Source: Bacteroidales bacterium
GTDB lineage: Bacteria > Bacteroidota > Bacteroidia > Bacteroidales > JAGOPY01
NCBI GenBank assembly: GCA_023229505.1
Contig: JALNZD010000001.1
Span: forward strand, 66,823-130,822
Direction of reading: 5' to 3'
DNA length: 64,000 nt
The notes below the pieces were generated by a model that ran no database searches, had not been told where the DNA came from, and was given only the letters and a program-made list of their open reading frames with translations. Below are positions 2,769 to 64,000 of the stretch, one piece after another (positions within the stretch are counted from its first letter, which is position 1; every line of letters starts with the position of its first letter). A program made the translations under genes and the position numbers.

Positions 2769-3713
2769 TTGATGTACCCCTGGGGACATCAACGCCGCTT
2801 TAACTCCTATGCCGAATATTTCAAAAAGCAATTCGGCGGAAGAGTACAAAAATTAGCTATTGACGCCGGGTTTACCTGTCCTAACCGTGATGGGTCCAAG
2901 GGCTTGGGAGGATGCACCTATTGCGATAACGATGCTTTCAATCCCTCCTATTGCCATCCTGAAAAATCAATCCTCACGCAAATTGAAGAAGGAATTGAAT
3001 TCCATGCAAGGAGATACCGACGGGCTTCCCTTTTCCTTGCTTATTTCCAGCCTTATTCCAATACCTATGCCCCGCTGGAAAAACTGAAAGAGATTTACTC
3101 ACAGGCACTGTCTTTCCCGGAGATAATCGGCTTGGTTATCGGTACCCGGCCTGATTGTATTGACGGGGAGAAACTTGAATATTTCCGGAACCTTTCTGAG
3201 TCTCAATATATCATGCTGGAATACGGCATTGAATCGTGCTATAACCGAACCCTGAAAAGGATTAACAGGGGCCATACCTTTGAGGATTCCATCGCTGCAC
3301 TCGGGATGACATCTCAATATGGTATAAAAACCGGTGTTCACCTGATCTTCGGGCTTCCGGGGGAAACAAGGGATGAAATGATGAAAGAAGCTGAGATATT
3401 ATCGGCTTTGAATATCAATAACATTAAATTTCACCAGTTACAAATTATTAAAGGTACCAGGATGGCTGAAGAGTTTAAAATGATGCCTGAAGGTTTTATC
3501 CGGTTTTCCCTGGATGATTACATTGAATTCATTATTGATTTTGTTGAAAAGCTAAATCCGGCTTTCGTAATAGAAAGATTTGCAGGTGAAGTCCCGCCCC
3601 GTTTCCTGGCAGGACCTGGCTGGGGTTTGATCCGCAATGATCAGATCCTGGTTAAGATCGAAAAAAGGATGGAAGAAAGAGGAACTTGGCAAGGTAAGAG
3701 GTTTAAGATTTAA
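2769..3713 (+). CDS. TIGR01212-family radical SAM protein
   Basis: The N-terminus YPWGHQRRFNSYAEYFKKQFGGRVQKLAIDAGFTCPNRDG...GGCTYCDN matches the TIGR01212 (YtqA/YhcC-like) radical SAM pattern. 314 aa. Confidence 0.85.
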   Translation: MMYPWGHQRRFNSYAEYFKKQFGGRVQKLAIDAGFTCPNRDGSKGLGGCTYCDNDAFNPSYCHPEKSILTQIEEGIEFHARRYRRASLFLAYFQPYSNTYAPLEKLKEIYSQALSFPEIIGLVIGTRPDCIDGEKLEYFRNLSESQYIMLEYGIESCYNRTLKRINRGHTFEDSIAALGMTSQYGIKTGVHLIFGLPGETRDEMMKEAEILSALNINNIKFHQLQIIKGTRMAEEFKMMPEGFIRFSLDDYIEFIIDFVEKLNPAFVIERFAGEVPPRFLAGPGWGLIRNDQILVKIEKRMEERGTWQGKRFKI

Positions 3714-3757
3714 GGTTTAAGTTGAGGATTTGAAACTTGAAATTTGAAATTTTTTAC
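3691..3757 (+). repeat. heptanucleotide array straddling the stop codon of the TIGR01212 gene
   Basis: 7-nt phase: aaggtaa gaggttt aagattt aaggttt aagttga ggatttg aaacttg aaatttg aaatttt. Stops at TAA 3711 (frame 0), TAA 3718 (frame +1) and TGA 3731 (frame +2). Ends in a T-run at 3750..3755. Confidence 0.7.
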
Positions 3758-8582: not shown

Positions 8583-8717
8583 TTTAATATTATTTTGATA
8601 TTGCAATAATACTACTTTTTTTATTACAAAGTCAAGTTTTTATTAAATTATTTTTTTAATGGCACGCGAATGACGCGAATTGAGCGAATTTTAATGGATT
8701 ATCTTACTTTTGTCGGA

Positions 8718-19051: not shown

Positions 19052-19086
19052 ATTCCTAATTTCAAATTTCAAATTTGATTTCTTTG
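19052..19086. repeat. heptanucleotide array (AAATTTG-type) between convergent genes, spanning the birA stop
   Basis: attccta atttcaa atttcaa atttgat. The reverse complement of 19059..19076 matches 3734..3751 at 17 of 18 positions. The birA stop TGA (19064-19062) lies inside the array. Confidence 0.45.
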
Positions 19087-20374: not shown

Positions 20375-22423
20375 ATGGCAGAGGAGAATTTTAATTCACA
20401 GGATAAAGGGGGGAGTAATTTACCAAAAGGTAAAAATACCAGGGCTAAATTCAGTTTCTACTGGATTTATGCCGGTTTACTTTTAGTTTTTATGCTGACT
20501 TATATTGTCAACTGGGAAGGAGGGGCAGCTAAAAAGACTACCTGGGGCGAAGTGAAGGAGATGCTGGAAAATGGTGATATCAGCCGCATCCTTCTGGTCA
20601 ACAAGGAATCGGCAGAAATTTTCCTTAAGCCGGAAAAGATTGATGATCCCAGGTACAAGGAAATAAAAGAGAAGGTCCCTGCCAAAGGGCCTCATTTCAC
20701 GTACAACATCACTTCTCCTGAAAGTTTTGAGAGGCTGGTGATGGAAGCCCAGAAGGACATTGCTGATCCGGTATATATTGAGAACGATGTAAGGCGCAAC
20801 TGGACCGGAGATATTCTGGGATGGGTTGTTCCTGTTGCCATCCTGGTCATTGTCTGGCTGGTTATCATGAGGATGATGAGCCGCAATGCCGGTGGTGCCG
20901 GAGGTCAGATCTTCAACATCGGTAAATCGAAAGCACAATTATTTGATAAGACCACCAGTGTAAGCATTAATTTTAATGATGTGGCAGGGCTTGAGGAAGC
21001 CAAGGTGGAGGTTAAAGAAGTGGTGGATTTTTTAAAGAACCCTTCAAAATATACGGGATTGGGTGGTAAAATTCCCAAGGGAGTCCTTTTGGTAGGTCCT
21101 CCGGGAACCGGAAAGACCTTGCTGGCAAAAGCCGTTGCGGGTGAGGCCCAGGTTCCGTTCTTTTCCCTTTCAGGCTCCGATTTTGTGGAAATGTTTGTGG
21201 GTGTGGGCGCTTCGAGGGTCAGGGACCTTTTTAAGCAAGCTAAAGAAAAAGCCCCCTGCATTGTATTCATCGATGAAATTGATGCCATCGGGCGTGCCAG
21301 GGGAAAGAACCAGATCACCGGCGCCAATGATGAGCGGGAAAGCACGCTGAACCAACTGCTCACCGAGATGGATGGTTTCAGCACTAACTCCGGGGTCATC
21401 ATCATGGCGGCGACAAACCGGGCCGATATCCTTGACAGGGCATTGCTCCGTGCCGGCCGCTTCGATCGTCAGATCAACGTAGAACTACCCGATCTCGAAG
21501 AACGAAGGGCAATTTTCAAAGTGCACACCAAGAACCTGAAATACGACAAGGAAAATGTCGACATGGAATGGCTGGCCAGGCAGACACCCGGTTTTTCCGG
21601 CGCAGACATTGCTAATGTTGCTAATGAATCGGCCCTGATAGCCGCCAGAAACGACAAGAAAATCATCGAAAAGCAGGATTTTGTGGATGCCATCGACCGG
21701 ATTATCGGTGGACTGGAACGACGAAGCAAGATTATTTCACAGGAGGAAAAGCAGGTGATCGCATTCCACGAATCCGGGCATGCATCGGTCAGCTGGTTGC
21801 TGCCGCACGCGCATCCATTAGTCAAAGTGACCATTGTCCCCCGCGGAAAAGCATTGGGCGCAGCGTGGTACCTGCCTGAAGAGAGGCAGCTCACGACTTT
21901 CGAACAGATGTTTGATGAAATGACCGCTACATTAGGCGGCAGGGCAGCGGAAGAGATCATATTCGGGAAGGTTTCAACCGGAGCCCTGAATGACCTGGAA
22001 AGGGTAACCAAACAGGCTTACAATATGGTCGTATTCTTCGGACTGAACGATAAGATCGGCAATATCAGCTATTATGATTCCACGGGGCAGCAGGAATATG
22101 CATTCCAAAAGCCTTACAGTGAAAAAACAGCGGAAGTTATTGACCATGAAATTGGAAAACTGGTCGACCAGGCCTATCGCAGAGCCGTGGAAATCCTTAG
22201 AATTAACAGGGACAAACTCGAGCATCTGGCCCGAATGCTGCTCGAAAAAGAAGTGATATTCGGCGAAGACCTGGAGCCCATCTTCGGGAAAAAGATGAAG
22301 CAGGCGGGGCATGAGATCGTTTTGATCAATATCAAATCAAACGGGAATAATACCATGTCTGAAAAAGCCGAAGATAAAACTCCAAAGAAAAGGGGCAGGA
22401 AGCCGAAGGCAGACAGAGTATAG
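20375..22423 (+). CDS. ftsH: ATP-dependent zinc metalloprotease FtsH
   Basis: [18 protein letters not shown] Walker [10 protein letters not shown] Walker B, SRH region [19 protein letters not shown], zinc site HESGHA. Confidence 0.97.
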
Positions 22424-22495
22424 TCGTCAGTCGTTAGTCGTTAGTGGTTGGTCATTAGGTAGTCAGAAGGTTGTCAGAAGGTAGTCATTAAGAAT
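22421..22495 (+). repeat. 7-nt then 11-nt tandem array starting at the ftsH stop codon
   Basis: tagtcgt cagtcgt tagtcgt tagtggt tggtcat taggtag, then gtagtcagaag gttgtcagaag gtagtcattaag. The core GGTCATTAGGTAGTCA (22450..22465) is the inverted partner (15/16) of 25771..25786. Confidence 0.65.
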
Positions 22496-22652
22496 TTGGC
22501 CCGTCAGGGACAAATGAAAATAGTCCCGGACAAGCCGCCCGTGGATAATAGATCGACCCTTTAAAACAAGTCCCATACGGCCCACAGGACTTGCAAAATA
22601 TTTGAACCTCCTCTTCCTTGTGTAATCTCTGTGAAGTATGCAGATCATCTAT

Positions 22653-22686
22653 AGAAAACCACTTAAATTTTTTCTAGTGGTTTTCT
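22653..22686. other. 11-bp perfect hairpin in an intergenic region
   Basis: AGAAAACCACT (22653..22663) pairs with AGTGGTTTTCT (22676..22686) across a 12-nt loop. No flanking T-run on either strand. Confidence 0.5.
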
Positions 22687-22865
22687 GCTATGGATTTCAC
22701 TTTAAAATAGATTATCATTGGGGGCATGAAGGATGAACTAACATATTTAAGATATATAAGGTTAGATCCAAAATCGCTGTACCCTCCATAAATGTACATT
22801 TCCTTTGCTGCACAAGACTTCTTAGTTTATAAACCCTTTAATTTAATCTTGTTAGGTTAATTCCC

Positions 22866-22942
22866 CGCCCCTTGGGGCGAAAGTATTCTAACTGACGGGT
22901 TAACCCGTCAGTTAAACAGATACCCCGCTGCTTGCGGCGGGG
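22866..22942. repeat. cluster of three GC-rich hairpins, including a 26-nt perfect palindrome
   Basis: CGCCCC-tt-GGGGCG (22866..22879); the perfect palindrome TAACTGACGGGTTAACCCGTCAGTTA (22889..22914); CCCCGC-N8-GCGGGG (22923..22942). They are separated by 8-10 nt AT-rich linkers and sit just upstream of the lipoprotein gene. Confidence 0.55.
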
Positions 22943-22957
22943 AGTTTCATTGACAAA

Positions 22958-24049
22958 ATGAAAAAAGTGATTTTTATTATAGCAATTATTTTATCTTTTA
23001 TTGTCGTAATTTTAAGCTGTAAAAAACAGCATGATGATTCAAAAGTTAATCCGATCAACCAGGTGAACCAGACCAACCAAAACATAGAACAGCGGATACT
23101 TACATTCAAATCGGAGATTGAAAACAGGCTGAAAAGTGGGAGCAGTTACCCGATAGATACAGCAGTTCGGTACACTGAAGCTTTGATAAATTATACTTAT
23201 GGAGATGTAGCCAATAATCTCCAAGGATTGGATATTGATTCCGTATTTATTGATGTTGATTTAACCGGCGGAAAGGTAACGCCTGCTGAAGCTGCATCTG
23301 TTTATGACGAGATTATTGACAGCCTGACTGTTCAATATCAGAATCTTCCTTCACAAAATCTTCATCTGATTTTCGCGGATGTTTTCAGAAGGGACTCTAT
23401 TTCAGGAAGTGTTACTTTCGGTGTAATCTCGGCATTCGGATATGTCTCGCCAATTAATTATGGTCGTTTTGGAGATGAGGATTGGTGGATGTTTGGGTTG
23501 GGGTGGTGTAATTCTGGGGGATACTGCGATGGCCCATACGAAGGAACACATACTAATAGTGATGCAGCCGAACAAATTGAATATAGAATCAGAGTAAATA
23601 TTGGTGTCCCTGGTCTAAGGCATTACTCTACTGATGTAGTAACGTTAGATATATGGCCTGATGGTCTTGTCCATTATTATGGAGACCCCCCTAATGGTAT
23701 TCCTCCCCAAAATTATTATTGTGATTTTCTTAATTACGAAGATGAAACTACCGAAGACAATTATTATGACTATTTGTGTTTTGTCAATTACTATGCATTA
23801 CCAAATTTTCATGATTGTCTCTGTCCTGATGAAATGAATTTCTACCTGCATGGTGAAGAATCTGTTTGTACCGATCTTATATTCGAATGTGATGATTTGG
23901 GGGATTTAATTGAAGACAAAGTTTTCATGTCCATTAATAATGAGGGAAGCATTTATTACGGATTTCCAAATTACAGTTATGTTCACATTATGACCAATAC
24001 ATATGGTTTATGGGTTGTTGACACAAATCAACCGGGAACTTTTAATTAA
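22958..24049 (+). CDS. hypothetical lipoprotein with a Cys/aromatic-rich C-terminal half
   Basis: Signal peptide with lipobox (IVVILSC at the N-terminus). Visibly AT-rich coding sequence. No family recognised. Confidence 0.7.
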   Translation: MKKVIFIIAIILSFIVVILSCKKQHDDSKVNPINQVNQTNQNIEQRILTFKSEIENRLKSGSSYPIDTAVRYTEALINYTYGDVANNLQGLDIDSVFIDVDLTGGKVTPAEAASVYDEIIDSLTVQYQNLPSQNLHLIFADVFRRDSISGSVTFGVISAFGYVSPINYGRFGDEDWWMFGLGWCNSGGYCDGPYEGTHTNSDAAEQIEYRIRVNIGVPGLRHYSTDVVTLDIWPDGLVHYYGDPPNGIPPQNYYCDFLNYEDETTEDNYYDYLCFVNYYALPNFHDCLCPDEMNFYLHGEESVCTDLIFECDDLGDLIEDKVFMSINNEGSIYYGFPNYSYVHIMTNTYGLWVVDTNQPGTFN

Positions 24050-25725: not shown

Positions 25726-25756
25726 TTGCAATTGAACAATCGAGCAATTGAACAAT

Positions 25757-25801
25757 GTATGACCACTTTATGACCACCTAATGACCACTTTCTGACCATT
25801 T
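25757..25801 (+). repeat. four 11-nt tandem units (tATGACCACtt)
   Basis: tatgaccactt tatgaccacct aatgaccactt tctgaccattt. It is the reverse complement of the array at 22450..22495. It is preceded by the direct repeat GCAATTGAACAAT x2 (about 25727..25756). Confidence 0.65.
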
Positions 25802-25844
25802 CTTCCTAAAAATCAGTCCTTGAACAGCAGTAGTTCAAATTTTC

Positions 25845-25852: not shown

Positions 25853-25860
25853 TATTGATT

Positions 25861-26505
25861 ATGGAAGAAAGCACTTCAAAAGAAAAGGTATTAAAATACA
25901 TTAGGGAGGCTCTCATTTCAAAGACTGATCAGCCATTTCCAAAGATCGACTATGAAAAGCCGGTATTCAGTGAAATGGAAGAATCTTTTGATATCAATTT
26001 CGCACAGGAATTGACTGCTGCCGGCGGAATGTTCATTTATTGTGAGAGTGAGGCGGAAGTCATCAATGGCCTCAGGTTCCTGATGCACGACCGGAAGTGG
26101 GACAATATTTTCGCACTTGAGCCAAAGATTATCGAGCTCCTGAATAAAGGGCAAATTACCTGCCTGTCTGATCACGATCAAATAACCCAGTCGCATGTGG
26201 GGATGACCGGATGCGAATCCCTCGTAGCAAGGCTGGGCAGCGTCATGGTGTCGACCGGGCAAATGGCCGGCCGGCAAATCTTTATCTATCCGGAAATCCA
26301 TATCGTTTTAGCACAGGCATCGCAACTGGTTGGTGACCTGAAGGATGCCCTGCTCAAATTAAGAAAAAAGTACGAACAACGGATGCCTTCGATGGTCACT
26401 CTTATCACGGGCCCCAGCCGTACGGCCGATATTGAAAAAACATTGGTCATGGGGGCTCACGGACCGAAAGAATTATATGTCTTCCTTCTGGAAGACCGGC
26501 TTTAA
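25861..26505 (+). CDS. LUD domain (LutC/YkgG-like) protein
   Basis: About 214 aa. GMTGCESLVARLGSVMVS...IHIVLAQASQLV...ITGPSRTADIE matches the LUD/DUF162 pattern. The ORF is open from the TTG at 25855. Confidence 0.8.
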   Translation: MEESTSKEKVLKYIREALISKTDQPFPKIDYEKPVFSEMEESFDINFAQELTAAGGMFIYCESEAEVINGLRFLMHDRKWDNIFALEPKIIELLNKGQITCLSDHDQITQSHVGMTGCESLVARLGSVMVSTGQMAGRQIFIYPEIHIVLAQASQLVGDLKDALLKLRKKYEQRMPSMVTLITGPSRTADIEKTLVMGAHGPKELYVFLLEDRL

Positions 26506-31873: not shown

Positions 31874-34183
31874 TTACGGAAGAATTTTCCCCCAGGATTT
31901 ATTAGGATGAGGACCCATCACAAAAGTAATTTTTCCGCCTTTTATTAATGAAGAATGATCTATGTAATTTTTTAAATATCTCTCTCCGTTCAACAGGATA
32001 TCCTGGATGAATAAGTTGGTTTCCGACTGATTTCTCACCTCTAATTCCAATTTATTGCCATTCTCCAATGTAATAACGGCAGATTTTACAAGGGGGCTTC
32101 CAATGGCATACCAGTCGGCTCCGGGGCAGACCGGGTAGAATCCCAGGGAACTGAAAATGTACCATGCCGACATCTGGCCGCAGTCATCATTCCCGCACAA
32201 CCCGTCCGGCGCATCAGCATACATGGCTTTCATGATCATCCTCACCCTTTCCTGTGTTTTCCATGGCTGACCGGTCCAGTTATAAAGATAGGGGATATGA
32301 TGACCGGGCTCGTTGCCGTGCACATAACAGCCGATAATCCCATCACGCGTTATATCTTCAGTTTCTTTAAAATTTTCATCTGACAAGTGCATAGTGAATA
32401 ACGAATCGAGGTACCTTGAAAATTTTTCCCTACCTCCCATCAGGCTGATCATCTCAGGAATCTGATGCGGGACATAAAGGCTGTAATTCCAGGCATTTCC
32501 TTCAATAAAACCCTGCCCATGCGTATTCAGAGGGTCAAACGGCACCTTCCATGAACCATCGTTCAGCTTTGGCCTCATGAAGCCCGTTCCTGGATCATAA
32601 ACATTCAAAAAGCTTGCAGATCGTTTGGTAAAAATCAGATCAATTTCAGGATTGCCAATTTTACCGGCCAATTGGGCAATGGTCCAGTCGTCATAGGCAT
32701 ATTCCAATGTTTTTGAAACCGAGGAAGAATTCTTGTCTTCCGGAACATAACCCATGACTTTATAATAGCCCAGACCATCAAAAAGATCATAATTGGCCGT
32801 ATTCACACAGGCTTCCAGCGCATGGCCGGTATCGAAACCATCATTTCCTTTTACAACGGCATCCGCGATGACCGAAACGGCGTGATAGCCAATCATGCAC
32901 CAATTCTCATTGGCATAGTGCGACCAGACTGGAAGCATCGGGTGCACGCTCTGATCATAATGGGCCAGCATGGATTTGATCATATCTGTATTCCTGCCGG
33001 GCTGTATTAGATTGAACAAAGGATGCAAGGCGCGGTAAGTATCCCAGAGCGAAAAAGTGGTGTAATTCGTAAAATCAGTTGCCTGGTTGATATTCTGGTC
33101 AAGGCCGCGGTAAGCGCCATCGACATCCATATAAACCGTCGGGCTGAGAAAAGAATGATAAAGGGCGGTGTAGAAGGTCACTTTATCGCCCGGGGTCATC
33201 GTTTCCACTACCACTTTGTTCAGTTCTTTATTCCATTTTCCCTGGCTTTCCCTGACTACCCGTTCAAAGTCCCAATGGGGAATTTCCGACTGTAGGTTTT
33301 TCAGGGCGCCATCCGTACTGACGGACGATAAGGCAAATTTGATTTTCAGTTTCTCCCCTTCTTTCATATTAAAGTCGAAATAAGCCCGGATCTTCTTGCC
33401 TGCCATTTCCGGGAAGTTCTTCGTTTCATCAAACTTCCGGTAAAATCCCCGGTAAACGGTCTGATCGTATTTTTTATGCCCATATTGATAAAATGGTTTG
33501 CTGAAGACCATCGCGAAATAAATCACCCGTGTCCTGGCCCAACCGTTTGTCTGGCGATAGCCGGTCACAAGCGTATCATTTTCCACCCGGATAAATGTCC
33601 AGACATTCTTATCATTATAATTATAAATCCCATGGATAAGATCAAGGATGACATGGGCGCTGTCGGTTTCCGGGAAGGTATACTGGTGAAAGCCTACCCG
33701 CGTTGTAGCCGTCAGTTCCGCCAGAATGCCGTCGTCATCCAGCTTCACTTTGTAATAGCCAGGTTCTGCAACTTCATTCTGATGTAAGTAAGCAGAGCGA
33801 TAGCCATTTTCAGGATGGACGGCAGTTCCCGGATTCAGCTGCAAAGCCCCGACCGTGGGCATAATCAGGAAATCTCCCAGGTCGGAATGCCCGGTCCCGC
33901 TGAAATGCGTATGGCTGAACCCCACGATCGTCGGGTCATCATATTGATATCCCGAGCAATAAGCATAAACCTCCCCGTTATATTTTCCGTCTTTTTCAAA
34001 GCTAATGGTATCAGTGTCAGGGCTGAGCTGCACCATGCCAAAAGGAACCGTTGCTCCCGGATAGGTATGGCCCATGCGTTGTGTGCCGATTAAAGGGTTT
34101 ATATATTGTATTAAGTTCTGTTGCGCTGAAAGATTGTCGAATATGATGACAAAGATTATTAGCAAGAAGTGAAGGTGTTTCAT
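31874..34183 (-). CDS. GH92 family alpha-mannosidase
   Basis: 769 aa. INPLIGTQRMGHTYPGATVPFGMVQLSPDT at the N-terminus, plus FSHTHFSGTG and GNEPGHHIPYLY motifs. Confidence 0.93.
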   Translation of the reverse strand: MKHLHFLLIIFVIIFDNLSAQQNLIQYINPLIGTQRMGHTYPGATVPFGMVQLSPDTDTISFEKDGKYNGEVYAYCSGYQYDDPTIVGFSHTHFSGTGHSDLGDFLIMPTVGALQLNPGTAVHPENGYRSAYLHQNEVAEPGYYKVKLDDDGILAELTATTRVGFHQYTFPETDSAHVILDLIHGIYNYNDKNVWTFIRVENDTLVTGYRQTNGWARTRVIYFAMVFSKPFYQYGHKKYDQTVYRGFYRKFDETKNFPEMAGKKIRAYFDFNMKEGEKLKIKFALSSVSTDGALKNLQSEIPHWDFERVVRESQGKWNKELNKVVVETMTPGDKVTFYTALYHSFLSPTVYMDVDGAYRGLDQNINQATDFTNYTTFSLWDTYRALHPLFNLIQPGRNTDMIKSMLAHYDQSVHPMLPVWSHYANENWCMIGYHAVSVIADAVVKGNDGFDTGHALEACVNTANYDLFDGLGYYKVMGYVPEDKNSSSVSKTLEYAYDDWTIAQLAGKIGNPEIDLIFTKRSASFLNVYDPGTGFMRPKLNDGSWKVPFDPLNTHGQGFIEGNAWNYSLYVPHQIPEMISLMGGREKFSRYLDSLFTMHLSDENFKETEDITRDGIIGCYVHGNEPGHHIPYLYNWTGQPWKTQERVRMIMKAMYADAPDGLCGNDDCGQMSAWYIFSSLGFYPVCPGADWYAIGSPLVKSAVITLENGNKLELEVRNQSETNLFIQDILLNGERYLKNYIDHSSLIKGGKITFVMGPHPNKSWGKILP

Positions 34184-34190
34184 AGTGAAA

Positions 34191-34320
34191 AGTTGTTAGT
34201 TTAGGTTTTAAGGTTTTAGGTTTAAGGGTTAAGTTTAGGACTTTTTTACTGTCTGTAAATCAAATATTTATATAAATTTCCAGAACTTAAACCTTAACCC
34301 TTAAACCTCAACACTTAAAT
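34191..34320. repeat. pair of inverted heptanucleotide arrays (TAAGGTT-type)
   Basis: Left arm 34191..34239 (agttgtt agtttag gttttaa ggtttta ggtttaa gggttaa gtttagg). Right arm 34286..34320 (cttaaac cttaacc cttaaac ctcaaca cttaaat). A 14-bp perfect complement joins 34220..34233 and 34293..34306. The right arm begins at the aldehyde dehydrogenase stop. Confidence 0.75.
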
Positions 34321-35739
34321 CAATCCTTTGCTCTTCATCACTATCAGCTTCTCCCGCGTCATTTCGTGCATTGAATAAGGGATCCCTCCTATGCCGATTC
34401 CGGATTCGTCGCGCCCGCCAAACGGCATCCAGTCGACACGGAAGGCGGTATGGTCGTTGATCATCACGGCGGAAGCATTGAGTTTTTGTGCCGTTTCCAG
34501 CGCCATATCGATATCGCGGGTAAAGACGGCTGCCTGGAATGCATAGCGCAGATTATTGGCTTTTGAGATGGCATCACCCAGATCTGAATAGGGATAGACG
34601 CAGATCACCGGGCCGAAGACTTCCTCCCTGGATACCTTTATGTGCTCAGGAGGAGCGAATAAGACTGTGGGACTGTAGGAAGCGGGGAAGCGGGGGAGCG
34701 GGGGAGATTGATTTAAAATTAATTGGCCGCCTGTAAGTAATTCTGCTCCGGTTGCTTTGGCTTCTTCAACCCAGTCATGAACTCGATTAACCTCACTTTC
34801 TGCTATCATGGGGCCTATATCCGTCTGCGGATCGAGCGGATCGCCGACTTTAAGGTTAGCGGCGATTTCGGCAAGCTTTTCTGCGAACGGGCGGGCAATT
34901 TCTTCATGTACGAACACCCGCTGCACAGAAACACAGACCTGCCCGGCGTGGTAAAAACCACCTTTGGCAATGCCGGGAGCTATTTCTTCAATTTCCGCTG
35001 ATTTATCTATGATGACCGGGGCTACGCCACCGTGTTCAAGTGCAATTCGTGTGCCTGGGGCAAGGATCGACCGGAGGTGCCATCCTACAGCATGTGATCC
35101 GATGAAAGTCACATAGCCAATCCGTGGATCGGCGGAGAGTTTTTCAGCCAGGTCGCGCCGGCAGACCAATGCGGTGCAGTGTGCCTCCGGCAGTCCGGCC
35201 TCGTAAAGCAGCCTGACCAGGTTGAAGCAGGAAACAGGAGTCGAAGATGCGGGCTTCACAATGACCGGGCAACCGGTTGCGATGGCCGGAATTACCTGGT
35301 GGATGATCAGGTTCAACGGATGGTTGAAGGCGCTGATTGCAAATACCACGCCTATTGGTTCCCGCGTGGTAAAAGCAAGCCTGTTAACCGAAGCAGCCGT
35401 CATTCCCATCGGGATCTCTTCTCCGCGAAGGTTATAGAGTTCAGCTGTTGCGATTTTTACGCCGTTGATGGCTCTCAGGACTTCCACTTTAGAATCGCGG
35501 TAAGGCTTGCCACCTTCTTCGGCGGCAATCCGCGTAAGTTCTTCCACCTGTTTTTCCATCAGGCCGGCAAGCCTTTCAAGGATTTCGATCCGATGGTATT
35601 TATGGAGCCAGCGGGATTGGTCATGGAACAAGTCATAAGCCTTGCTTATGGCGCGTTCAATTTCTCTTTCCCCGGCAAGGGGAAATTCCCGGATAAAATG
35701 ATGGTCGTACGGCGACTTTACTGTCAGGATAGCAGACAT
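34315..35739 (-). CDS. NAD(P)-dependent aldehyde dehydrogenase family protein
   Basis: 474 aa. ALEHGGVAP (catalytic Glu region), GFYHAGQVCVSVQR (catalytic Cys), EEVFGPV. Confidence 0.9.
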   Translation of the reverse strand: MSAILTVKSPYDHHFIREFPLAGEREIERAISKAYDLFHDQSRWLHKYHRIEILERLAGLMEKQVEELTRIAAEEGGKPYRDSKVEVLRAINGVKIATAELYNLRGEEIPMGMTAASVNRLAFTTREPIGVVFAISAFNHPLNLIIHQVIPAIATGCPVIVKPASSTPVSCFNLVRLLYEAGLPEAHCTALVCRRDLAEKLSADPRIGYVTFIGSHAVGWHLRSILAPGTRIALEHGGVAPVIIDKSAEIEEIAPGIAKGGFYHAGQVCVSVQRVFVHEEIARPFAEKLAEIAANLKVGDPLDPQTDIGPMIAESEVNRVHDWVEEAKATGAELLTGGQLILNQSPPLPRFPASYSPTVLFAPPEHIKVSREEVFGPVICVYPYSDLGDAISKANNLRYAFQAAVFTRDIDMALETAQKLNASAVMINDHTAFRVDWMPFGGRDESGIGIGGIPYSMHEMTREKLIVMKSKGLI

Positions 35740-35750
35740 AAGGAGGATTT

Positions 35751-36560
35751 TTATAATTCCTCCACCAGGTCGGAAAAGATTTTCACAAGCCCTTGCTCGG
35801 CCTGGGAGGCGTAATAAAGTATTTTCGAAATATCGACAGGTTCAAGATGATCCGGGTCACATTCATCCGTAACAACGGAAATAGCAGCCACCGGGAGTTT
35901 CATGTGGTTGGCCACTATCACTTCGGGGGTGGTTGACATCCCAACGACATCGGCACCAATGCGGCTAAGCCACCTGTATTCGGCGCGGGTTTCGAGGTTT
36001 GGTCCTGATACAGCCACATAGACGCCCCGATGCAAAGTGATGCCGTTCTTTTCAGCGATCCGGATTATCTTCTGATTGATTTCCTTTGAATAAGCCTGGC
36101 TCATGTCCGGGAAACGGGTTCCCAGTTCATCGAAATTGGGCCCGATCAAAGGATTCGGAAGCAGGTTGATATGATCCTCGATGAGCATCAGTGATCCTTT
36201 TTTGAATGCGGTATTCATGGCACCGCAGGCGTTGGAAACCAGCAAACTGCGTATTCCAAGGACTTTCATAACCCGGATCGGCAGGGTGATTTCCTGGGTG
36301 GTATAACCTTCATAAGTATGGAAACGGCCCTTCATGACCAGGACCTTCTTACCGCGAAGCATGCCATATATCAGGATTCCATGGTGAAATTCGACGGTTG
36401 AAATTGGAAAGTGGGGAATCTTCTCATAATCGATCTCAATTTCAGGCTCGATCTGGTCGGCCAGTTTTCCCAGGCCGGTTCCAAGAATAATGCCAATTTC
36501 AGGTTCCGTGATCCCTTTCGATCGTAAAAATGCTGCGGATTCCAGTATTCTGTTCATCAT
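35751..36560 (-). CDS. punA: purine nucleoside phosphorylase (trimeric PunA type)
   Basis: IILGTGLGKLAD...IPHFP.STVEFHHG...GRFHTYEGY...NACGA...GPNLETRAEYR...GADVVGMST motifs. Confidence 0.88.
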   Translation of the reverse strand: MMNRILESAAFLRSKGITEPEIGIILGTGLGKLADQIEPEIEIDYEKIPHFPISTVEFHHGILIYGMLRGKKVLVMKGRFHTYEGYTTQEITLPIRVMKVLGIRSLLVSNACGAMNTAFKKGSLMLIEDHINLLPNPLIGPNFDELGTRFPDMSQAYSKEINQKIIRIAEKNGITLHRGVYVAVSGPNLETRAEYRWLSRIGADVVGMSTTPEVIVANHMKLPVAAISVVTDECDPDHLEPVDISKILYYASQAEQGLVKIFSDLVEEL

Positions 36561-36641: not shown

Positions 36642-37260
36642 ATGAGGAACATCCCTCAACTTCTCGTTATTGCTGCCATCCTTGGGCTTCTGACATAGGG
36701 TATAATTTCACCTATGAAATGTCGTGGATTATGGCGGTACACTGAGTTATGGCGGCCCGAAGCGCTGGATGTCCGGGTACACTCAATATTACAACGGTAT
36801 GCATAACCGCATCACCAATGCTTACCAGATCCAGGTCGGCACCCCTGAAGCGGGAAAATACGTGCTTACCACCTTCGGGGGCAGCGCTAACCATGCGATG
36901 ACTATATTAGGCTATAACGATTCTATCCGCTGGGATTACAACAATGTAAGCCTTAACAAGCCTGAAGTTATTCTCGGCTATCCCATTTATGATTACCATG
37001 GAGGCGATAACTATATGCAGGGTGGAACAACCGAAGCCGATAAAACCATCGAATTCGGCCTGGATCTTTCGAAATTACTCAGCGATATCAACCTGAACCA
37101 GGATGTCAAAGTTTTTCTGCAGGTTGTCCAAGACTTTTACCTTCTCATCCACTGGAGTTATCGTTCAGGACTCCGTGGTTTCAGGCGGGGATGATGTAAT
37201 CGCTTTCGGGGAAACGGCCTGGATGAATATCTCGATCTTAAATCTCCGGCAGGAAGTTGA
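36642..37260 (+). pseudogene. decayed secreted papain-like cysteine peptidase gene
   Basis: The ATG at 36642 gives an MRNIPQLLVIAAILGLLT signal-like start, then TAG at 36693. ORF 36724..37194 carries only the C-terminal half of a peptidase-like domain (GGSANHAMTILGYNDS, a His-region look-alike) with no catalytic Cys region. The frame then shifts near 37110 into ...STGVIVQDSVVSGGDDVIAFGETAWMNISILN. Confidence 0.45.
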
Positions 37261-37282
37261 AAAGCAGGAGGTCATTTTCCTG

Positions 37283-37681
37283 ATGATCATAGAGCGATTC
37301 CCTCACAAGTTTGACTGGACCTTTATCGACCAGTTATATGCGCTATACACACATTCATGGCTGAAAGATCCTGTCTATGAAAATATTAATAAGACCATGC
37401 AGGTCGGCCCCTGGTACGGAGATATCATCAATAGGGCAGCACTGAGACATATTTCTCTGGAAGAAGCCCTTATTGAAGAGGGAAAATTCCTTTTTTACCG
37501 GAATGATACGGTGAATTATCTGATCAATTATGGCCAGGATCATTTCAGCCGGATTATTTCAGACAATCCCGTCTGGATGGAACACGTCAGGGGAAAAGCG
37601 ATACAAAAGGGAATTCCGCTGAAAGAGATGATAAGGTTGGATGCGGAGTATATGTGGGAGCAGAAACTTAAGAAGTTTTGA
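37283..37681 (+). CDS. hypothetical protein (or the 3-prime fragment of a larger decayed gene)
   Basis: This is the distal part of ORF 37103..37681, from the internal ATG (MIIERFPHKFDW...). No recognised family. Coding status is uncertain. Confidence 0.3.
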   Translation: MIIERFPHKFDWTFIDQLYALYTHSWLKDPVYENINKTMQVGPWYGDIINRAALRHISLEEALIEEGKFLFYRNDTVNYLINYGQDHFSRIISDNPVWMEHVRGKAIQKGIPLKEMIRLDAEYMWEQKLKKF

Positions 37682-37719
37682 GTGTTAAGTGTTGAGTGTT
37701 AAGTTGGGGACTTTTTTAT
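37679..37719 (+). repeat. heptanucleotide stop-codon array plus a T-run tail
   Basis: TGAGTGT TAAGTGT TGAGTGT TAAGTTG starts at the stop codon, giving stops in frames 0, +1, +2 and 0 at 37679, 37686, 37693 and 37700. It is followed by GGGGACTTTTTTAT. Confidence 0.75.
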
Positions 37720-37734
37720 TTGGAAAAATGGTGT

Positions 37735-37742
37735 AATTTTGC
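37735..37742 (+). promoter_or_regulatory. candidate -7 box TAnnTTTG upstream of efp
   Basis: TAATTTTG lies 38 nt upstream of the ATG at 37780. Confidence 0.3.
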
Positions 37743-37779
37743 AAAAATTTTCGGAAAATCTTTCTAAAACCTCAGTAAT

Positions 37780-38346
37780 ATGCCAACAACCGCGGATTTC
37801 AGGAATGGATTGTGCATCGAATTTAACAATGACCTCTGGGCGATCGTTGAGTTTCAGCATGTCAAACCCGGCAAAGGCGGTGCTTTCGTCCGGACCAAGA
37901 TAAAGAACCTTCGTGATGGCCGGGTGCTTGAAAATACCTTCATAGCCGGTGTCAAGATCAATATTGTCAGGATCGAAAGAAGGCCTCATCAATATCTTTA
38001 TAACGATGGGGATTCCTATCACTTCATGAATTCCGATACCTTCGAACAGGTCTATATCGAGAAAAAAATGATCGATGCTGCGGACCTGCTCAAGGAAGGA
38101 CAGACAGTCGACCTGATCTTCCATTCCGAAACGGAAACCGTGTTGCAGTGCGAAATGCCGGCTACGGTCACGCTTGAAGTGACTTACACCGAGCCCGGGG
38201 AAAAAGGCAACACCGCCACCAACACGCTGAAAGAGGCAACAGTTGAAACCGGCGCTATCGTCCGGGTACCGCTGTTTATCAATGCCGGTGAGAAAATCAA
38301 GGTAGATACCCGTACTTACCGGTATGCTGAAAGAGCTAAAGATTAA
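37780..38346 (+). CDS. efp: elongation factor P
   Basis: 188 aa. [38 protein letters not shown] is canonical for EF-P. Confidence 0.95.
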
Positions 38347-48334: not shown

Positions 48335-48500
48335 TTCAGGGTGCAATTCGACCTTCATGTTCCATTTTGCATTTTTCATGTTGTATTTTTCATTTGTTGA
48401 GTATTTCATAAATCGTTGGGGTCATTGAAGTGTAATCAGAAGACCTATTTCTTAATTTCAAATTCAATCATTTTTTGTAATTTTATTAAAAATTAGGAAG

Positions 48501-58551: not shown

Positions 58552-58570
58552 AAATTTTATTTTAAAAGAT

Positions 58571-58723
58571 ATAAATAGAAATATAATGGAAATACAATGG
58601 AAATACAATGGAAATATAATGGAAATAAAGCATAAATACAATAGAATCATATTTCCAAGTTTTCAACGTATTTCCATGTATTTCAACATATTTCCATGTA
58701 TTTCAATGTATTTCAAAATTTCC
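58571..58723. repeat. inverted pair of decamer/undecamer arrays filling the cusC-cusB spacer
   Basis: 58571..58640 reads (AATGGAAATAC)n with an 11-nt phase. 58651..58723 reads (TTTCnAnnTA)n with an exact 10-nt phase and the opposite orientation. The last five cusC codons (NFEIH) lie in the array. Confidence 0.8.
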
Positions 58724-60166: not shown

Positions 60167-60560
60167 CTTTGGTCAGTTTGATGAAATTGTTTAATCTGAT
60201 TTGAAGATCTTTAGAAACAGTTTTATAATCATCAAAAATTTCTTGGGAGATTTTACCTCGTTCAAATAATAGCTCAAGCCAATGATCGGTGGCTTCAGAC
60301 TGGGATGCCCTCGCATTATAATAAAACCGAACCTTATGCAAATAATGAAATCGGCTATAACCTTCTGCGATGTTCGCTCCAATAGAATCGGTTGAACGGA
60401 TAAACTGATCACCAATGACTTTTTTTTCTTCAAAACTCATTTTTGAATAAATGTTCCAAGCAATAACTGAAAGTTTCCTGGCTAATTGATATACCTTCAA
60501 ATCCTTAACTTGTATGTAGTTTCTACTTCCATTTATTTCATTAATTTCATTTATTTCCAT
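60150..60560 (-). CDS. four-helix-bundle protein (23S rRNA intervening-sequence protein family, TIGR02436-like)
   Basis: 136 aa. DLKVYQLARKL..., STDSIGANIAEGYSRF and YYNARASQSEATDHWLELL match the family. The N-terminus MEINEINEIN is encoded by repeat DNA. The stop overlaps the cusC start by 17 nt. Confidence 0.85.
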   Translation of the reverse strand: MEINEINEINGSRNYIQVKDLKVYQLARKLSVIAWNIYSKMSFEEKKVIGDQFIRSTDSIGANIAEGYSRFHYLHKVRFYYNARASQSEATDHWLELLFERGKISQEIFDDYKTVSKDLQIRLNNFIKLTKDEKQQ

Positions 60561-60632
60561 GTATTTCTATGTATTTCAACGTATTTCTATTTATTTCTAA
60601 GTATTTCTATGTATTTCTATTTATTTCAATTT
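60529..60632. repeat. decamer array (GTATTTCTAT-type, about 10 units)
   Basis: Exact 10-nt phase from 60551 to 60630: ttatttccat gtatttctat gtatttcaac gtatttctat ttatttctaa gtatttctat gtatttctat ttatttcaat. It covers the whole cusA-4HB spacer, the 4HB start and the cusA stop. Confidence 0.82.
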
Positions 60633-63600
60633 CCTTTCCCTCCACATCGCCTGAAACAAAGGAACCACGAAGACTGTCATTACCTGGATAACCATACCAC
60701 CAAACATGGGTATTGCCATTGGGACCATAATATCAGCTCCTTTGCCGTTAGATGATAAGACAGGTAATAAAGCAATGACAGCAACGGCTGTGGTCATCAT
60801 AGCTGGCCTTACACGTTTCAGCCCGGCAGACACTACGGCTTCACGCACTTCATGAACAGTTGCAGGATGCCGCGCTTCAAATACCTGGTGAATATAAGTC
60901 CCCATGATTACGCCATCATTAGTGGCTATACCGAATAAAGCAATAAAACCAACCCAGACTGCCACGCTCAGATTTATCGTGTGCATCTGGAACATATCCC
61001 GCAGGTTTATGCCAGCAACGGAAAAATTAAGAAACCAACCCTGACCATATAACCAGAGCATGATAAATCCACCGGCAAATGCGACGAATACGCCGGAAAA
61101 ATGAATAAATGAGGCCGTAACAGTGCGGAATTGGAAGTACAACAATAACAATATCAATAATAAGCTTATGGGTATGACAATAGCCAGTCTTTTTGTAGCC
61201 CTCAGCTGATGTTCATAATTGCCAGCGAATTTATAAGACACTCCGGCAGGAAGGGTAAGAGATCCTGTATTCAGCTTCTGTTGGATTATTTTAGCTGCTT
61301 CTTCCACTACATCAACTTCTGCTTTTCCTTCTATCTTATCGAATATAACATATCCGACAAGGAAGGTGTTTTCACTCCGGATCATTTGAGCTCCGCGGGT
61401 GTAATCAATATCGGCGATTTCGCCCAAAGGAACCTGGACGCCATTCATTGCCGGGATCAGGATGCGTTTCAGGTCATCAGGATTATCGCGCAACTCACGG
61501 GCATAACGGACCCTGATTGGGAACCTTTCGCGGCCTTCGACCGATGTGGAAAGGCTCATGCCTCCGACAGCCACCTGCAGCACTTCCTGGACATCGCTGA
61601 TACTCATCCCATAACGGGCCATCGCTTCGCGATTGAGGTTGATTTCGAGGTAAGGCGCCCCTACGGCCCGGTCGTAGAACACGGATGATGCTTTGACTGA
61701 CGGCACATCTTTCAGCGCTTGCTCAAACTGCATACCAGCCAGCTCGATGGAGTTGAGATCGGGCCCGTAAACTTTTAAACCCATCGGGGCGCGCATACCG
61801 GTTGAAAGCATCACCAGCCGGGTCTCAATCGGTTGCAGCTTTGGAGCGGAAGTCAGACCAGGGATGTCAGTTACCTTGACTATTTCGTTCCAGATATCCA
61901 GAGGCTTTTTAATCTGCGGACGCCACTGGCGGAAATACTCTCCATTTTCATCTTTTATCAGAAAACTATCTATATTTTTCGAAATATATTGAAATACATT
62001 GAAATACGTTGAAATATTAGAATCCCGTATTTCAGATTTTATCCACTGACCTTTGACTAAAACTAAAAATGTTCCACTTTCTTTATTATACTTTATTTCC
62101 TCAATATTATCGACTGTAACTTTATTTCCATCTATTTCTATTGTATTTCCATCTATTTCTATTGTATTTCCATCTATTTCTATTGTATTTCCATCTATTT
62201 CTATTGTATTTCCATCTATTTCAACCGCATTTCTATTTATTTCTATTGTATTTCTGAATTCCGACAAGTTCAAAATAAAATTCACATTCTTATCTGCCTT
62301 AAACCTTTGTCTATGCCCATTTTCGTTAAGGATGTACTCAGGCCGGTAATTGATAGTATTCTCAAACATTTGCACCGGGGCCGGATCAAGGGCAGAATTA
62401 ACGCGGCCCCATTTACCCACGGCAATTTCGACTTCGGGAATAGCAGAAAGCCGTTTGTCGAGCGTTTCAATGTATTCAAGGTTCTTCTCAATGCTTGAAT
62501 GTGGCATACTGGTGGGCATGAGCAAGAAAGAACCTTCGTTTAATGAAGGCATAAACTCCTTGCCAATTCCCGGAAACGTCTTTACAGGAGCCTGCCAGAT
62601 TGCTGTTTGCCTGAAATTTTTCCAACCCACACTTTCTATACCTGATGCAACAAAACCGAATATTTTATCAAAACCCTGCCAGGCTAACAGACCAAAAAAT
62701 AAAGTGACTGCCGGTATGATCAGGAACTTACTTTTATGTGCCAACGCCCAACGAATAATATCTTCATAATAATGCACCATGGACATCAGGGCAGCAAGAA
62801 TCACAGCAATGATACCACTCACAAAAATGAAATTGATGAAAGTACTGTTATGAGCGCCTAGGGGAAGCCACTCAACTGAGAGATACCAGGCTGCTGCAAG
62901 CACGGTAATGGCAATGTTGATATAGTTAGGAAATTCTTTCCGGTATTCAGGCCAGCGGTAATCGAGCAAATTATTTATACCTACAGCAATTAAAGCCAAT
63001 GCCGGCCAGGTATGCCAGAAAATTATAAACGCTATCCCTGCTATGATAAGGCTTCCGTTCCACACCATTCGGATTTTCTTTTTATCAAAGCGGATATTGA
63101 AGAATATATGCACCAGTGTTGGCAAAACCACGATTCCGAGGATAAATGCAGCGATCAGGGCGAAGGTTTTCGTAAAAGCCAGGGGGTGAAATAATTTACC
63201 TTCGGCGGCCTGCATGGCAAAAACGGGCAGAAAGCTGACAATGGTAGTTGCAATGGAAGTAACCACCGCTGCACGCACTTCGGTAGTGGCCAGGTATATA
63301 ACCTGGAGCAATTTCTTCCCACGGATGCCTAAATTTTCGGGCATTTCCAAATGCCGGAGAATGTTCTCCACATCCACAATCCCAATGTCGACCATTACGC
63401 CAATGGCAATTGCAATACCCGATAAGGCAACGATATTGGCTTCGATGCCGAATAGTCGCATGAGGATGAAAGTCATTAATACGCCAATGGGCAGAAGGCC
63501 CGCTACAATGAGGGATGCTCTCAGGTTCATCACCAGGATAATAATCACAATAATACTGATAAGGATTTCATGCGATAGGGCATATTCAAGCGTTCCGATG

Positions 63601-64000
63601 GTTTCTTTAATCAGCCCGGTACGGTCGTAGAATGGAACAATCGTCACTTTGGAAACTGAACCATCGGGCAGGGTTTTTTGCGGCAAACCGGCTTCTATCT
63701 CTTTTATTTTATCTTTTACATTATTGATGACTTCCATGGGATTTGACCCAAAGCGGGCAACTACTACCGCGCCTACTGCTTCGGAACCCGACTTATCGAG
63801 TCCACCGCGGCGGGTAGCCGGTCCAAATGCAACGCGGGCAACATCTTTAATGCGCACCGGTACATTGTTTCTTACAGCTACGACAGAGATTTCAAGGTCT
63901 TCCAAATTCTTTACATAGCCTAAACCGCGGATAATGTATTCCACATTGTTAATTTCTATAGTTTCCGCACCGATGTCGAGGTTGCTTTTGCGCACGGCAT
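60621..64000 (-). CDS. cusA: CusA/CzcA-family heavy-metal RND efflux pump (5-prime end beyond the window)
   Basis: RND permease motifs throughout (GIAIAIGVMVDIGIV, MLSTGMRAPMGLKVYG, GIATNDGVIM). The frame is open through base 64000. The apparent start at 63995 is an internal GTG (..AVRKSNLDIGAETIE.. lies about 200 residues into CusA homologs). Confidence 0.93.
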   Translation of the reverse strand, partial: AVRKSNLDIGAETIEINNVEYIIRGLGYVKNLEDLEISVVAVRNNVPVRIKDVARVAFGPATRRGGLDKSGSEAVGAVVVARFGSNPMEVINNVKDKIKEIEAGLPQKTLPDGSVSKVTIVPFYDRTGLIKETIGTLEYALSHEILISIIVIIILVMNLRASLIVAGLLPIGVLMTFILMRLFGIEANIVALSGIAIAIGVMVDIGIVDVENILRHLEMPENLGIRGKKLLQVIYLATTEVRAAVVTSIATTIVSFLPVFAMQAAEGKLFHPLAFTKTFALIAAFILGIVVLPTLVHIFFNIRFDKKKIRMVWNGSLIIAGIAFIIFWHTWPALALIAVGINNLLDYRWPEYRKEFPNYINIAITVLAAAWYLSVEWLPLGAHNSTFINFIFVSGIIAVILAALMSMVHYYEDIIRWALAHKSKFLIIPAVTLFFGLLAWQGFDKIFGFVASGIESVGWKNFRQTAIWQAPVKTFPGIGKEFMPSLNEGSFLLMPTSMPHSSIEKNLEYIETLDKRLSAIPEVEIAVGKWGRVNSALDPAPVQMFENTINYRPEYILNENGHRQRFKADKNVNFILNLSEFRNTIEINRNAVEIDGNTIEIDGNTIEIDGNTIEIDGNTIEIDGNKVTVDNIEEIKYNKESGTFLVLVKGQWIKSEIRDSNISTYFNVFQYISKNIDSFLIKDENGEYFRQWRPQIKKPLDIWNEIVKVTDIPGLTSAPKLQPIETRLVMLSTGMRAPMGLKVYGPDLNSIELAGMQFEQALKDVPSVKASSVFYDRAVGAPYLEINLNREAMARYGMSISDVQEVLQVAVGGMSLSTSVEGRERFPIRVRYARELRDNPDDLKRILIPAMNGVQVPLGEIADIDYTRGAQMIRSENTFLVGYVIFDKIEGKAEVDVVEEAAKIIQQKLNTGSLTLPAGVSYKFAGNYEHQLRATKRLAIVIPISLLLILLLLYFQFRTVTASFIHFSGVFVAFAGGFIMLWLYGQGWFLNFSVAGINLRDMFQMHTINLSVAVWVGFIALFGIATNDGVIMGTYIHQVFEARHPATVHEVREAVVSAGLKRVRPAMMTTAVAVIALLPVLSSNGKGADIMVPMAIPMFGGMVIQVMTVFVVPLFQAMWRERKLK
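61981..62256. repeat. in-frame inverted decamer arrays inside cusA, including four perfect 21-nt tandem copies
   Basis: 61981..62020 reads gaaatatatt gaaatacatt gaaatacgtt gaaatattag. The array in 62091..62256 has the opposite orientation. ATCTATTTCTATTGTATTTCC is repeated perfectly four times (62130..62213), encoding GNTIEID x4 on the minus strand. Confidence 0.88.

Follow-up and report, generated by a model that had tools for sequence, protein, structure and literature searches.

Heptamer arrays at gene ends of a Bacteroidales genome as probable slippage-grown repeats in constrained spacers

Why tandem repeats should begin exactly at the stop codons of unrelated genes is the question raised by a 64,000-nucleotide (nt) stretch of DNA from a Bacteroidales bacterium (GCA_023229505.1, contig JALNZD010000001.1, positions 66,823-130,822; the whole stretch is referred to as the window, and all coordinates are window-based). 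An initial annotation had noted heptamers of the degenerate type TRAGKKT in tandem at three gene ends and had suggested that they provide fail-safe stops, serve as a G/U-rich 3' untranslated region (UTR) signal or mark an element that targets TAA or TGA. The quoted sequences are present, and comparison with related loci points to another origin: the arrays are probably simple repeats grown by slippage, which occupy the unconstrained DNA that follows a stop codon, up to the next promoter or start.

Heptamer arrays in the window

The focal array (37672..37706, plus strand) lies at the end of gene X, the open reading frame (ORF) 37103..37681, whose 3' end reads ...aag aag ttt TGAGTGT TAAGTGT TGAGTGT TAAGTTG GGGACTTTTTTATTTGG. 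The stop codon opens the first unit, and the coding end before it, GAAGTTT (37672-37678; last codons K K F), already fits the unit at 6/7 positions and can be counted as unit 0. On its 3' side the array is bounded by the T-run GGGACTTTTTTATTTGG and the adjoining TAATTTTG (37707..37742, plus strand), a stretch whose sequence is conserved in the relatives L123, L122 and L206. T-run and TAATTTTG box fit what we take to be the Bacteroidetes -7 consensus, TAnnTTTG, and presumably mark the efp promoter. RNA contigs of efp begin at 37766-37797, downstream of this box, and the focal array is therefore placed between the gene X stop and the putative efp promoter; these metatranscriptome data are assembled, low-depth contigs in which transcript 3' ends are not resolvable.

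Two further arrays use the same type of word. After an aldehyde dehydrogenase gene (34286..34319, minus strand), the units TAAGTGT TGAGGTT TAAGGGT TAAGGTT TAAGTTC run from the stop codon at 34317 downward, and an inverted partner (34199..34237, plus strand) is located 15 nt upstream of the GH92 start. At the TIGR01212 gene (3702..3757, plus strand), the array spans the stop codon at 3711-3713 and reads TTTAAGA TTTAAGG TTTAAGT TGAGGA TTTGAAA CTTGAAA TTTGAAA, then TTTTTTAC, its word switching to TTTGAAA from 3725. Here the periodic stretch begins at least one unit before the stop, with TAAGATT at 3704 out of frame (start at 3702 according to Tandem Repeats Finder, TRF), and the last codons (R F K I) lie inside it. 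The earlier statement that the first unit is the gene's own stop thus holds at 37679 and 34317, and also at 22421 after ftsH, where the stop codon supplies the first three bases of unit 1, but it fails at 3711.

The TAGTCGT-type array reported after ftsH (22421..22487, plus strand) was found as (TAGTCGT)5 from the ftsH stop (TAGTCGT CAGTCGT TAGTCGT TAGTGGT TGGTCAT), followed by an 11-nt repeat, (AGGTAGTCAGA)3. Between convergent genes, the birA array (19052..19086), a (TGAAATT)n repeat with the birA stop in its last unit, has the same word as positions 3734-3751 of the TIGR01212 array; the described match at 17/18 positions was reproduced, with the correction that the birA array belongs to the minus strand. 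A (CATTTTG)-type array (48354..48397, plus strand) begins 20 nt after the purD stop and contains no stops. As had been claimed, successive units place stops in frames 0, +1 and +2, which is accomplished within 21 nt in the three TRAGKKT arrays and the ftsH array. TRF delimits the period-7 arrays of the window at 3702-3752, 19058-19076, 22421-22458, 34199-34237, 34286-34319, 37673-37704 and 48363-48395.

In a sliding scan (28 nt, at least 75% self-match) controlled by dinucleotide-preserving shuffles, the window yielded 8 period-7 segments at 7 loci against 0.0 in the shuffles, and periods 5, 6, 8 and 9 gave only 0-3 segments. The pattern TRAGKKTTRAGKKTTRAG (T[AG]AG[GT][GT]T-type runs), searched with at most one mismatch, matched 9 times at 3 loci against 0.02 expected. 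Enrichment at gene 3' ends is strong: all arrays lie within the non-coding part of the window, which makes up about 10%, and nearly all stand against a gene 3' end, period-7 arrays being found in spacers or overlapping the last codons only and the sole intragenic array having a 21-nt period. The arrays are short, with 4-6 units, and degenerate (74-80% match), and they share the properties of long simple sequence repeats, namely head-to-tail units above chance, a mainly non-coding location and whole-unit copy changes. An array with units of 7, 10 or 11 nt occurs within about 20 nt of the stop at 10 of the 54 complete gene 3' ends of the window, a figure read by eye from repeat and ORF listings and not from an automated tally. 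The sequence GGACTTTTTT, considered as a shared tail motif, had 18 occurrences (at most one mismatch) versus 10.5 expected and is no general companion of the arrays.

Turnover of arrays at orthologous junctions

Two orthologous junctions, one between the TIGR01212 gene and a type IX secretion system (T9SS) gene and the other between gene X and efp, carry arrays in most relatives and lack them in some. At the TIGR01212 junction, L212 (88% amino acid identity) has no array; its gene ends ...ttt gaa att TGA AATTTTTTTAC..., in which the last codons and the stop form a two-unit quasi-repeat across the stop (TTTGAAA TTTGAAA TTTTTTT), followed by a T-run and the TATATTTG box as in the window. L208 and L209 (95% amino acid identity, fully syntenic) carry the window sequence with one extra unit, TTTGGAA, which constitutes a clean 7-nt indel. 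In L210, a 5' arm, GTTTCAG GTTTCAC, lies in the coding tail and precedes (GAAACTT)n and T7, and in L211 the gene reads through (CAGTCAG)n to give the tail ...SAVSSQQLNN. More generally, 120 TIGR01212 orthologues end in ...TWQG[KR] plus a variable tail of 2-25 residues, and some of these tails, e.g. SGFKF and SAVGSQ, are recognizably array-encoded. A seed, unit-wise growth and the tolerance of stop-free arrays are all visible at this junction. Outside the part shared with the window, L208 also contains (GTCGGCG)4 starting from the stop of a DUF4159 gene, and (TTAAAAA)4 with an 8-nt array, which together take up a spacer between two co-oriented genes (2964-2990 and 6889-6969 of L208).

The gene X-efp junction was gathered from nine relatives. 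In L123 (84% nt identity in efp) it reads ...aag aag ttt TAAGGTT TAAGGTT TAAGTGT TGAGTTA GGGACTTTTTTATTCG, four units of which the first is the stop codon. L205 has the same K K F end as the window and continues with (TGAACTT/TGGACTT)x12, starting exactly at TGA. A single unit, TGAGTTT, is followed by unrelated DNA in L204, and L124 has no array, its gene ending AAG TGA T with one unit-like heptamer. Arrays that do not touch the stop were found in L125, where (YAAGAAC)x9 begins 30 nt after it, and in L207, where (TGGAACY)n begins 60 nt after it. L206 combines (GCCTCAA)3 within the coding tail with inverted (GGCTTGT)n, and L122, the relative nearest in efp (91% nt identity), has lost the stop, its ORF continuing for 13 codons through a YARGTTT/AAACCTG pair. 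Arrays at this junction therefore recur across relatives, while their words, length, stop content and exact position turn over. At the two junctions together, the words TRAGKKT, TGAACTT, YAAGAAC, GCCTCAA and CAGTCAG are all represented, and unit number is 2 in L212 and 12 in L205. The conservation at orthologous gene ends that the initial annotation had proposed to test was thus found, with clear gain and loss, and the idea of a G/U-rich 3' UTR signal was not supported, since neither words nor strand composition are conserved between relatives.

The neighboring efp-lpxD spacer has a length of only 3 nt in the window, where the sequence is TAA tat ATG; in five relatives, differing arrays take up all of it between the stop and the ATG, namely (AGTTTCA)4(AAACCTG)5 in L122, (AAAATTA)5(AAAACTC)5 in L123, (AAATTCC)5 in L206, other words in L125 and, in L124, TCAGTGT TGAGGTT TGAGTTT TAAGGTT TAAGTGC separated by 85 nt from inverted AACTAAA ACCTTAA CCCTTAA CACTTAA. 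An RNA contig of another relative has TAGTGT TAAGGTT TAAGGGT directly at the efp stop. In L125, arrays inverted with respect to each other stand on both sides of efp, (AAGAACC)n with CGGGAAC upstream and GTTCCGGGTTCTTGGTTTC just after the stop (302-371 and 1067-1090 of L125).

Origin of the arrays and competing explanations

If the arrays arose by replication slippage, a quasi-repeat formed by the last codons and the stop codon, e.g. ttt gaa att TGA aat (TTTGAAA TTTGAAA), would act as the seed, and the array would grow or shrink by one unit per step, with units mostly of 7 nt and some of 10 or 11 nt. This process is supported by the one-unit difference between L208/L209 and the window, by the seed in L212 and the lone heptamers of L204 and L124, and by the turnover of words, the variable protein tails and the frequent lack of in-phase stops. 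Selection would maintain the coding sequence before the array and, behind it, either the following start codon or the T-run and -7 box of the following promoter, so that the array would be confined directly after the stop and would therefore look anchored there. A stop codon inside the seed heptamer would be copied into every unit and, as 7 = 1 mod 3, all frames would close. Selection would otherwise serve as a filter: stop-free arrays would let ORFs run into variable tails, and the start-side arm would usually be A/C-rich. Where an inverted partner is present, the two arms would form a long hairpin, and some such hairpins, especially inverted pairs followed by a T-run, may have been taken over as terminators or intercistronic stem-loops. 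A close strain shows 2 changes in 28 nt of array sequence versus 1 in about 450 nt of adjoining coding DNA, and the substitution rate looks near neutral.

Fail-safe termination, in which the arrays would be selected for three-frame stops that catch read-through or frameshifted ribosomes, would account for the cycling of stops through all frames. In-phase stops were counted in 35 period-7 arrays within 25 nt of the end of an ORF of at least 100 codons, taken from the window and 86 related loci. They were present on the sense strand only in 7, on the antisense strand only in 1 and on both in 9; in the remaining 18 of the 35, both strands are free of them. Where a single strand carries the stops, it is the sense strand in 7/8 cases (p 0.07), and among TRAGKKT arrays collected across phyla (n=128), long ORFs end in unit 1, 2 or 3 in 18, 5 and 9 cases. 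In this cross-phylum set 96 arrays have no long ORF ending inside, orientation relative to neighbors is mixed, and ORF calls through stop-free antisense arrays are unreliable. Both the excess in unit 1 and the sense-strand bias, however, follow automatically from a seed heptamer that includes the stop codon, and selection for back-up stops is not required. Stop-free arrays (AAATTCC, GAAGTGC, CAGTCAG, GCCTCAA), or none at all, are what relatives have at these very junctions, array-encoded tails reaching about 25 residues are tolerated in orthologues, and L122 has lost the stop. Three-frame closure is a by-product of a seed containing the stop codon, not a selected function, and the fail-safe explanation offered initially is considered extremely unlikely.

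A mobile repeat element inserting at TAA or TGA, resembling either a miniature inverted-repeat transposable element (MITE) or a repetitive extragenic palindromic (REP) sequence, would leave the arrays as its footprint or body. At the junction between an OmpA-like gene and efp in a distant lineage, a paired block of about 100-150 nt is present exactly at the stop in L191, L192, L193 and L196 and absent from L195, L197, L198 and L200, where the stop directly adjoins the promoter block. The aldehyde dehydrogenase gene with its arrays is a strain-level indel, a paired element lies in frame inside CusA (both described below), and array sequences are multi-copy in the community (depth 246 vs about 35). 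Alignment of loci with and without the paired block, in contrast, revealed no target duplication and no conserved termini, and there is no internal sequence shared between loci. The words vary by junction and by relative, single-unit differences separate close relatives, array-less L212 holds the seed, and no transposase was recognized among the annotated window genes, of which a subset was scanned. An element that targets stop codons, as suggested in the initial annotation, is on these grounds judged quite improbable. A MITE assignment was rejected: what would be the terminal 'inverted repeats' is array sequence whose unit number varies, contigs that match the arrays diverge directly outside them, and neither a duplication nor a conserved body was detected.

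In many spacers, an array at the stop is matched by its reverse complement close to the following start, e.g. at 34199-34319 and 58567-58723 in the window and in L124, L122, L191, L192, L196, L201 and L202, and these inverted pairs begin at the stop and come within 0-35 nt of the following start. This arrangement would be expected if the arrays were selected structural elements of RNA or DNA, forming terminator or intercistronic stems that insulate genes, stabilize mRNA or couple translation and that slippage only varies; in the coupling version, a ribosome at the stop would melt the 5' arm and free the 3' arm beside the next start. The pair at 34286-34319/34199-34237 has 49-nt arms with 78% complementarity (-34.4 kcal/mol, z -3.1), and folds of inverted pairs compared with shuffles reach z -3.4 to -7.6. 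The halves of 3692-3757 pair through A-U and G-U only before T6 (z -2.0), and the L210 junction likewise presents a hairpin followed by a T-run (T6-7 in the two cases). In L123, a 15-bp pairing forms between the flanks of the focal array (z -2.8), in which a double change has turned one G-C into A-U compared with the window, and arrays persist at the same junctions across relatives. In most pairs inspected, the stop-side arm is G/T-rich and the start-side arm A/C-rich (L206 is opposite; L201 and L202 are ambiguous), a polarity that may come from filtering that disfavors upstream start codons and favors an A-rich leader.

Other evidence speaks against a general structural function. Neither a partner nor a significant fold was found for the focal array (z 0.2), as is the case for the solo arrays as a group (37679, 22421, 48354 and L205; z 0.2 to 0.4), and a consensus scan for simple terminators found nothing at the arrays. 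The arms in L191 are unequal (4-5 vs 8 units), array-free L124 and L212 do well, as does the window with its 3-nt efp-lpxD spacer, and RNA contigs cross arrays elsewhere, arrays of other loci being transcribed. Selected structures are regarded as a possible but less likely explanation of the arrays as a whole.

Several observations weigh against a slippage origin and are gathered here. Slippage alone makes no inverted copies, and template switching or selection must therefore be added to explain the pairs, whose folds are well beyond those of shuffled sequences. Recurrence of arrays at the same two junctions in most relatives could be due to selection as well as to a lack of constraint. Near-identical strains showed no differences in copy number, and the window and L123 both keep 4 units, 6/7 of their differences falling at the degenerate R and K positions. 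Word families are also shared between loci of one genome, with three loci for TRAGKKT and five sites within 4 kb for GAAATACATG, which hints at copying between loci or a shared preference, and the 7-nt unit length is left without account. A broader proposal is that of evolvable heptamer hairpins at gene junctions of this Bacteroidales lineage and of scattered others, composed of a stop-side arm and an inverted start- or promoter-side arm, which would act as terminators, insulators or translational couplers tunable in 7-nt steps; solo arrays would be half-built or decayed, and word families would be propagated by a dedicated copying process, such as template switching from arm to arm or locus to locus, which would reach in frame even into a coding gene such as CusA. 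This proposal is judged unlikely. The word families and the restriction of window-L123 differences to R and K positions would also suit binding sites for a single-strand nucleic-acid-binding protein with a footprint of about 7 nt (a cold-shock protein, S1 or a protein with an RNA recognition motif), as has been proposed for TAACTGA repeats (PMC4679880). Words are not conserved at orthologous sites, though, and orientation relative to transcription varies among relatives, which makes such sites a very improbable cause. Slippage within constrained spacers thus remains the probable origin of the arrays.

Known repeats, genomic context and implications

The initial annotation knew of no description of stop-anchored heptads in Bacteroidota; intergenic heptamer repeats have, however, been reported from Beggiatoaceae, Cyanobacteria and five Bacteroidetes (MacGregor, 2015; PMC4679880). 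In that work, forward repeats close all frames and hence sit at ORF ends, 13 sets overlap the upstream stop codon and close relatives lack repeats. The Bacteroidales arrays belong to this already described kind: like the TAACTGA repeats, they are tandem heptamers in spacers, from 2 to tens of copies, with forward-strand stops in all frames, some sets overlapping the upstream stop codon, and with close relatives that have no repeats or other heptamers in the same spacer. They differ in that the word TAACTGA is absent from the window (one 2-mismatch match inside a gene vs 0.45 expected), in that they abut stop codons, most BOGUAY sets being placed shortly before start codons, and in the inverted pairs and word turnover at orthologous junctions, which are not described in PMC4679880. 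According to the summary given there of Mrazek (2007), long simple repeats are most often heptanucleotides, and slippage is taken to be their source. A Nostoc preprint describes regulatory effects of heptamer repeats near promoters, the mechanism not being given.

With long simple repeats and the short tandemly repeated repetitive (STRR) sequences of cyanobacteria, the arrays share the dominance of 7-nt units, a non-coding location, attribution to slippage and a scattered phylogeny. They are not STRR sequences, as the host is an uncultured member of the Bacteroidales (Bacteroidota, with T9SS sorting domains) and not a heterocystous cyanobacterium, and they use many locus-specific words in contrast to the few genome-wide consensus heptamers that we take to characterize STRR sequences. 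The REP sequences of enterobacteria and their composites, the bacterial interspersed mosaic elements (BIMEs), are a conserved palindromic family spread by REP-associated tyrosine transposases (RAYTs). REP/BIME elements are likewise found just after stops and between cistrons, form stem-loops and vary in presence among relatives, but the hairpin arms described here are tandem repeats of locus-specific words. A RAYT-type gene was not found among the subset of window ORFs scanned for annotation, and no genome-wide search was made. Intrinsic terminators are resembled by 3692-3757, the L210 junction and L206, in which a hairpin precedes a T-run at a gene end; array stems differ in being long, A-U/G-U rich and periodically mismatched, and solo arrays are stemless. 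By eye, array units fit what we take to be the integron attC consensus, GTTRRRY, and the aldehyde dehydrogenase is a strain-level indel; the idea was dropped because the units are tandem and follow core genes (ftsH, purD), with no search for an integrase beyond the annotation of window genes. A telomere-like or G-quadruplex reading of TTTAGG-type words was discarded, as there are no G-runs.

The arrays are not specific to the Bacteroidales lineage of the window. In 822 kb of more distant Bacteroidota, 34 period-7 arrays were counted (about 4 per 100 kb, vs 12.5 per 100 kb in the window), together with 8, 1, 1 and 1 of periods 8, 9, 10 and 11 and 22 and 25 of periods 5 and 6. The TRAGKKT pattern has at least 120 matches across many phyla in contigs representing one genome per species, where a uniform-composition estimate gives about 1 by chance; searched without a control word, these matches show wide occurrence only and do not single out the word as special. 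Among the matches listed are filamentous Cyanobacteria (Leptolyngbya, Oscillatoria), Saprospiraceae, Chitinophagaceae, Prevotella, Chloroflexia, Desulfobacterales and Verrucomicrobia.

Within the window, three gene ends of a cus-type efflux operon (56.9-64 kb) carry 10-/11-nt words (GAAATACATG) in the same architecture, and the phenomenon is therefore not restricted to heptamers. At the OEP gene end (58567..58723, minus strand), (GAAATACATG)n runs from the stop and is followed by inverted (CCATTGTATTT)n, with 10/11-nt words; an ATG about 15 nt beyond the latter is likely the start of the next gene. Mutually inverted decamer arrays (60078-60130 and 60527-60638, minus strand), the second of which starts at the CusA stop, flank a PF05635 gene ('23S rRNA intervening sequence protein', a four-helix bundle) located between CusA and the outer-membrane efflux gene; they consist of ATACATAGAA and TTCTATTTAT (60078-60638). 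Inside the CusA-like ORF 60621..63995, an in-frame 21-nt repeat, (GAAATAGATGGAAATACAATA)6 (61967-62254, minus strand), encodes (EIDGNTI)n, has an inverted partner about 100 nt away encoding ..STYFNVFQYIS.. and shares words with the nearby intergenic decamer arrays; it has the appearance of a paired-array element that entered the coding gene in frame. Other repeats are an 8-nt array, CAATTGAA, with an 11-nt array, TATGACCACTT (25729-25804), in the 313-nt spacer before gene 25855..26505, where no stop codon adjoins, and a 12/23-nt repeat, CATTTTAATATT, between Band_7 and HAD-hydrolase genes (8568-8629), which occupies the same place in syntenic L208 (15809-15843).

The window encodes T9SS sorting domains, GH92, EF-P, LpxD, FtsH and BirA, and close homologues are labelled as Bacteroidales metagenome-assembled genomes (MAGs). 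Its sequence is also present in landfill, groundwater and lake metagenomes and in MAG GCA_041645205.1. In a close relative, the aldehyde dehydrogenase gene, both flanking arrays and the first GH92 codons (34127-35754) are missing and 62 other bases stand instead; this absence, observed in a 52-kb contig of run X3 and in contigs of other runs, is a strain-level indel. A close relative also lacks three segments in 36759-37206 (88 nt, 109 nt and a 79-nt stretch that has 27 nt in its place; net -249 nt). Homologues of ORF 37103..37681 are longer (250-322 amino acids) and align only to 37238-37663, and gene X in the window may be rearranged or have its true start further upstream. Just upstream of gene 22958..24049 lies an element of about 110 nt with three G+C-rich hairpins (22842-22951), which is multi-copy in metagenomes (depth 150-440 vs about 20). 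No Rfam family reached its gathering score in the whole window; hits in 22400-23000 were weak and at chance level only, the best being PyrR (24.7 bits) and anti-hemB (19.9 bits), far below the gathering score, and a tRNA scan found none.

The comparative picture is one of short tandem repeats that would be born from the last codons and the stop codon, grow in 7-nt steps and become boxed in by their neighbors, and such birth and confinement would explain why the arrays look aimed at stop codons. Annotators of these genomes are thereby warned that an array may encode the variable C-terminal tail of a protein. If paired arrays act as terminators or intercistronic hairpins, they would illustrate how slippage can create and tune such structures, a prospect whose interest is heightened in a phylum that departs from the model bacteria in its translation start sites and RNA regulators.

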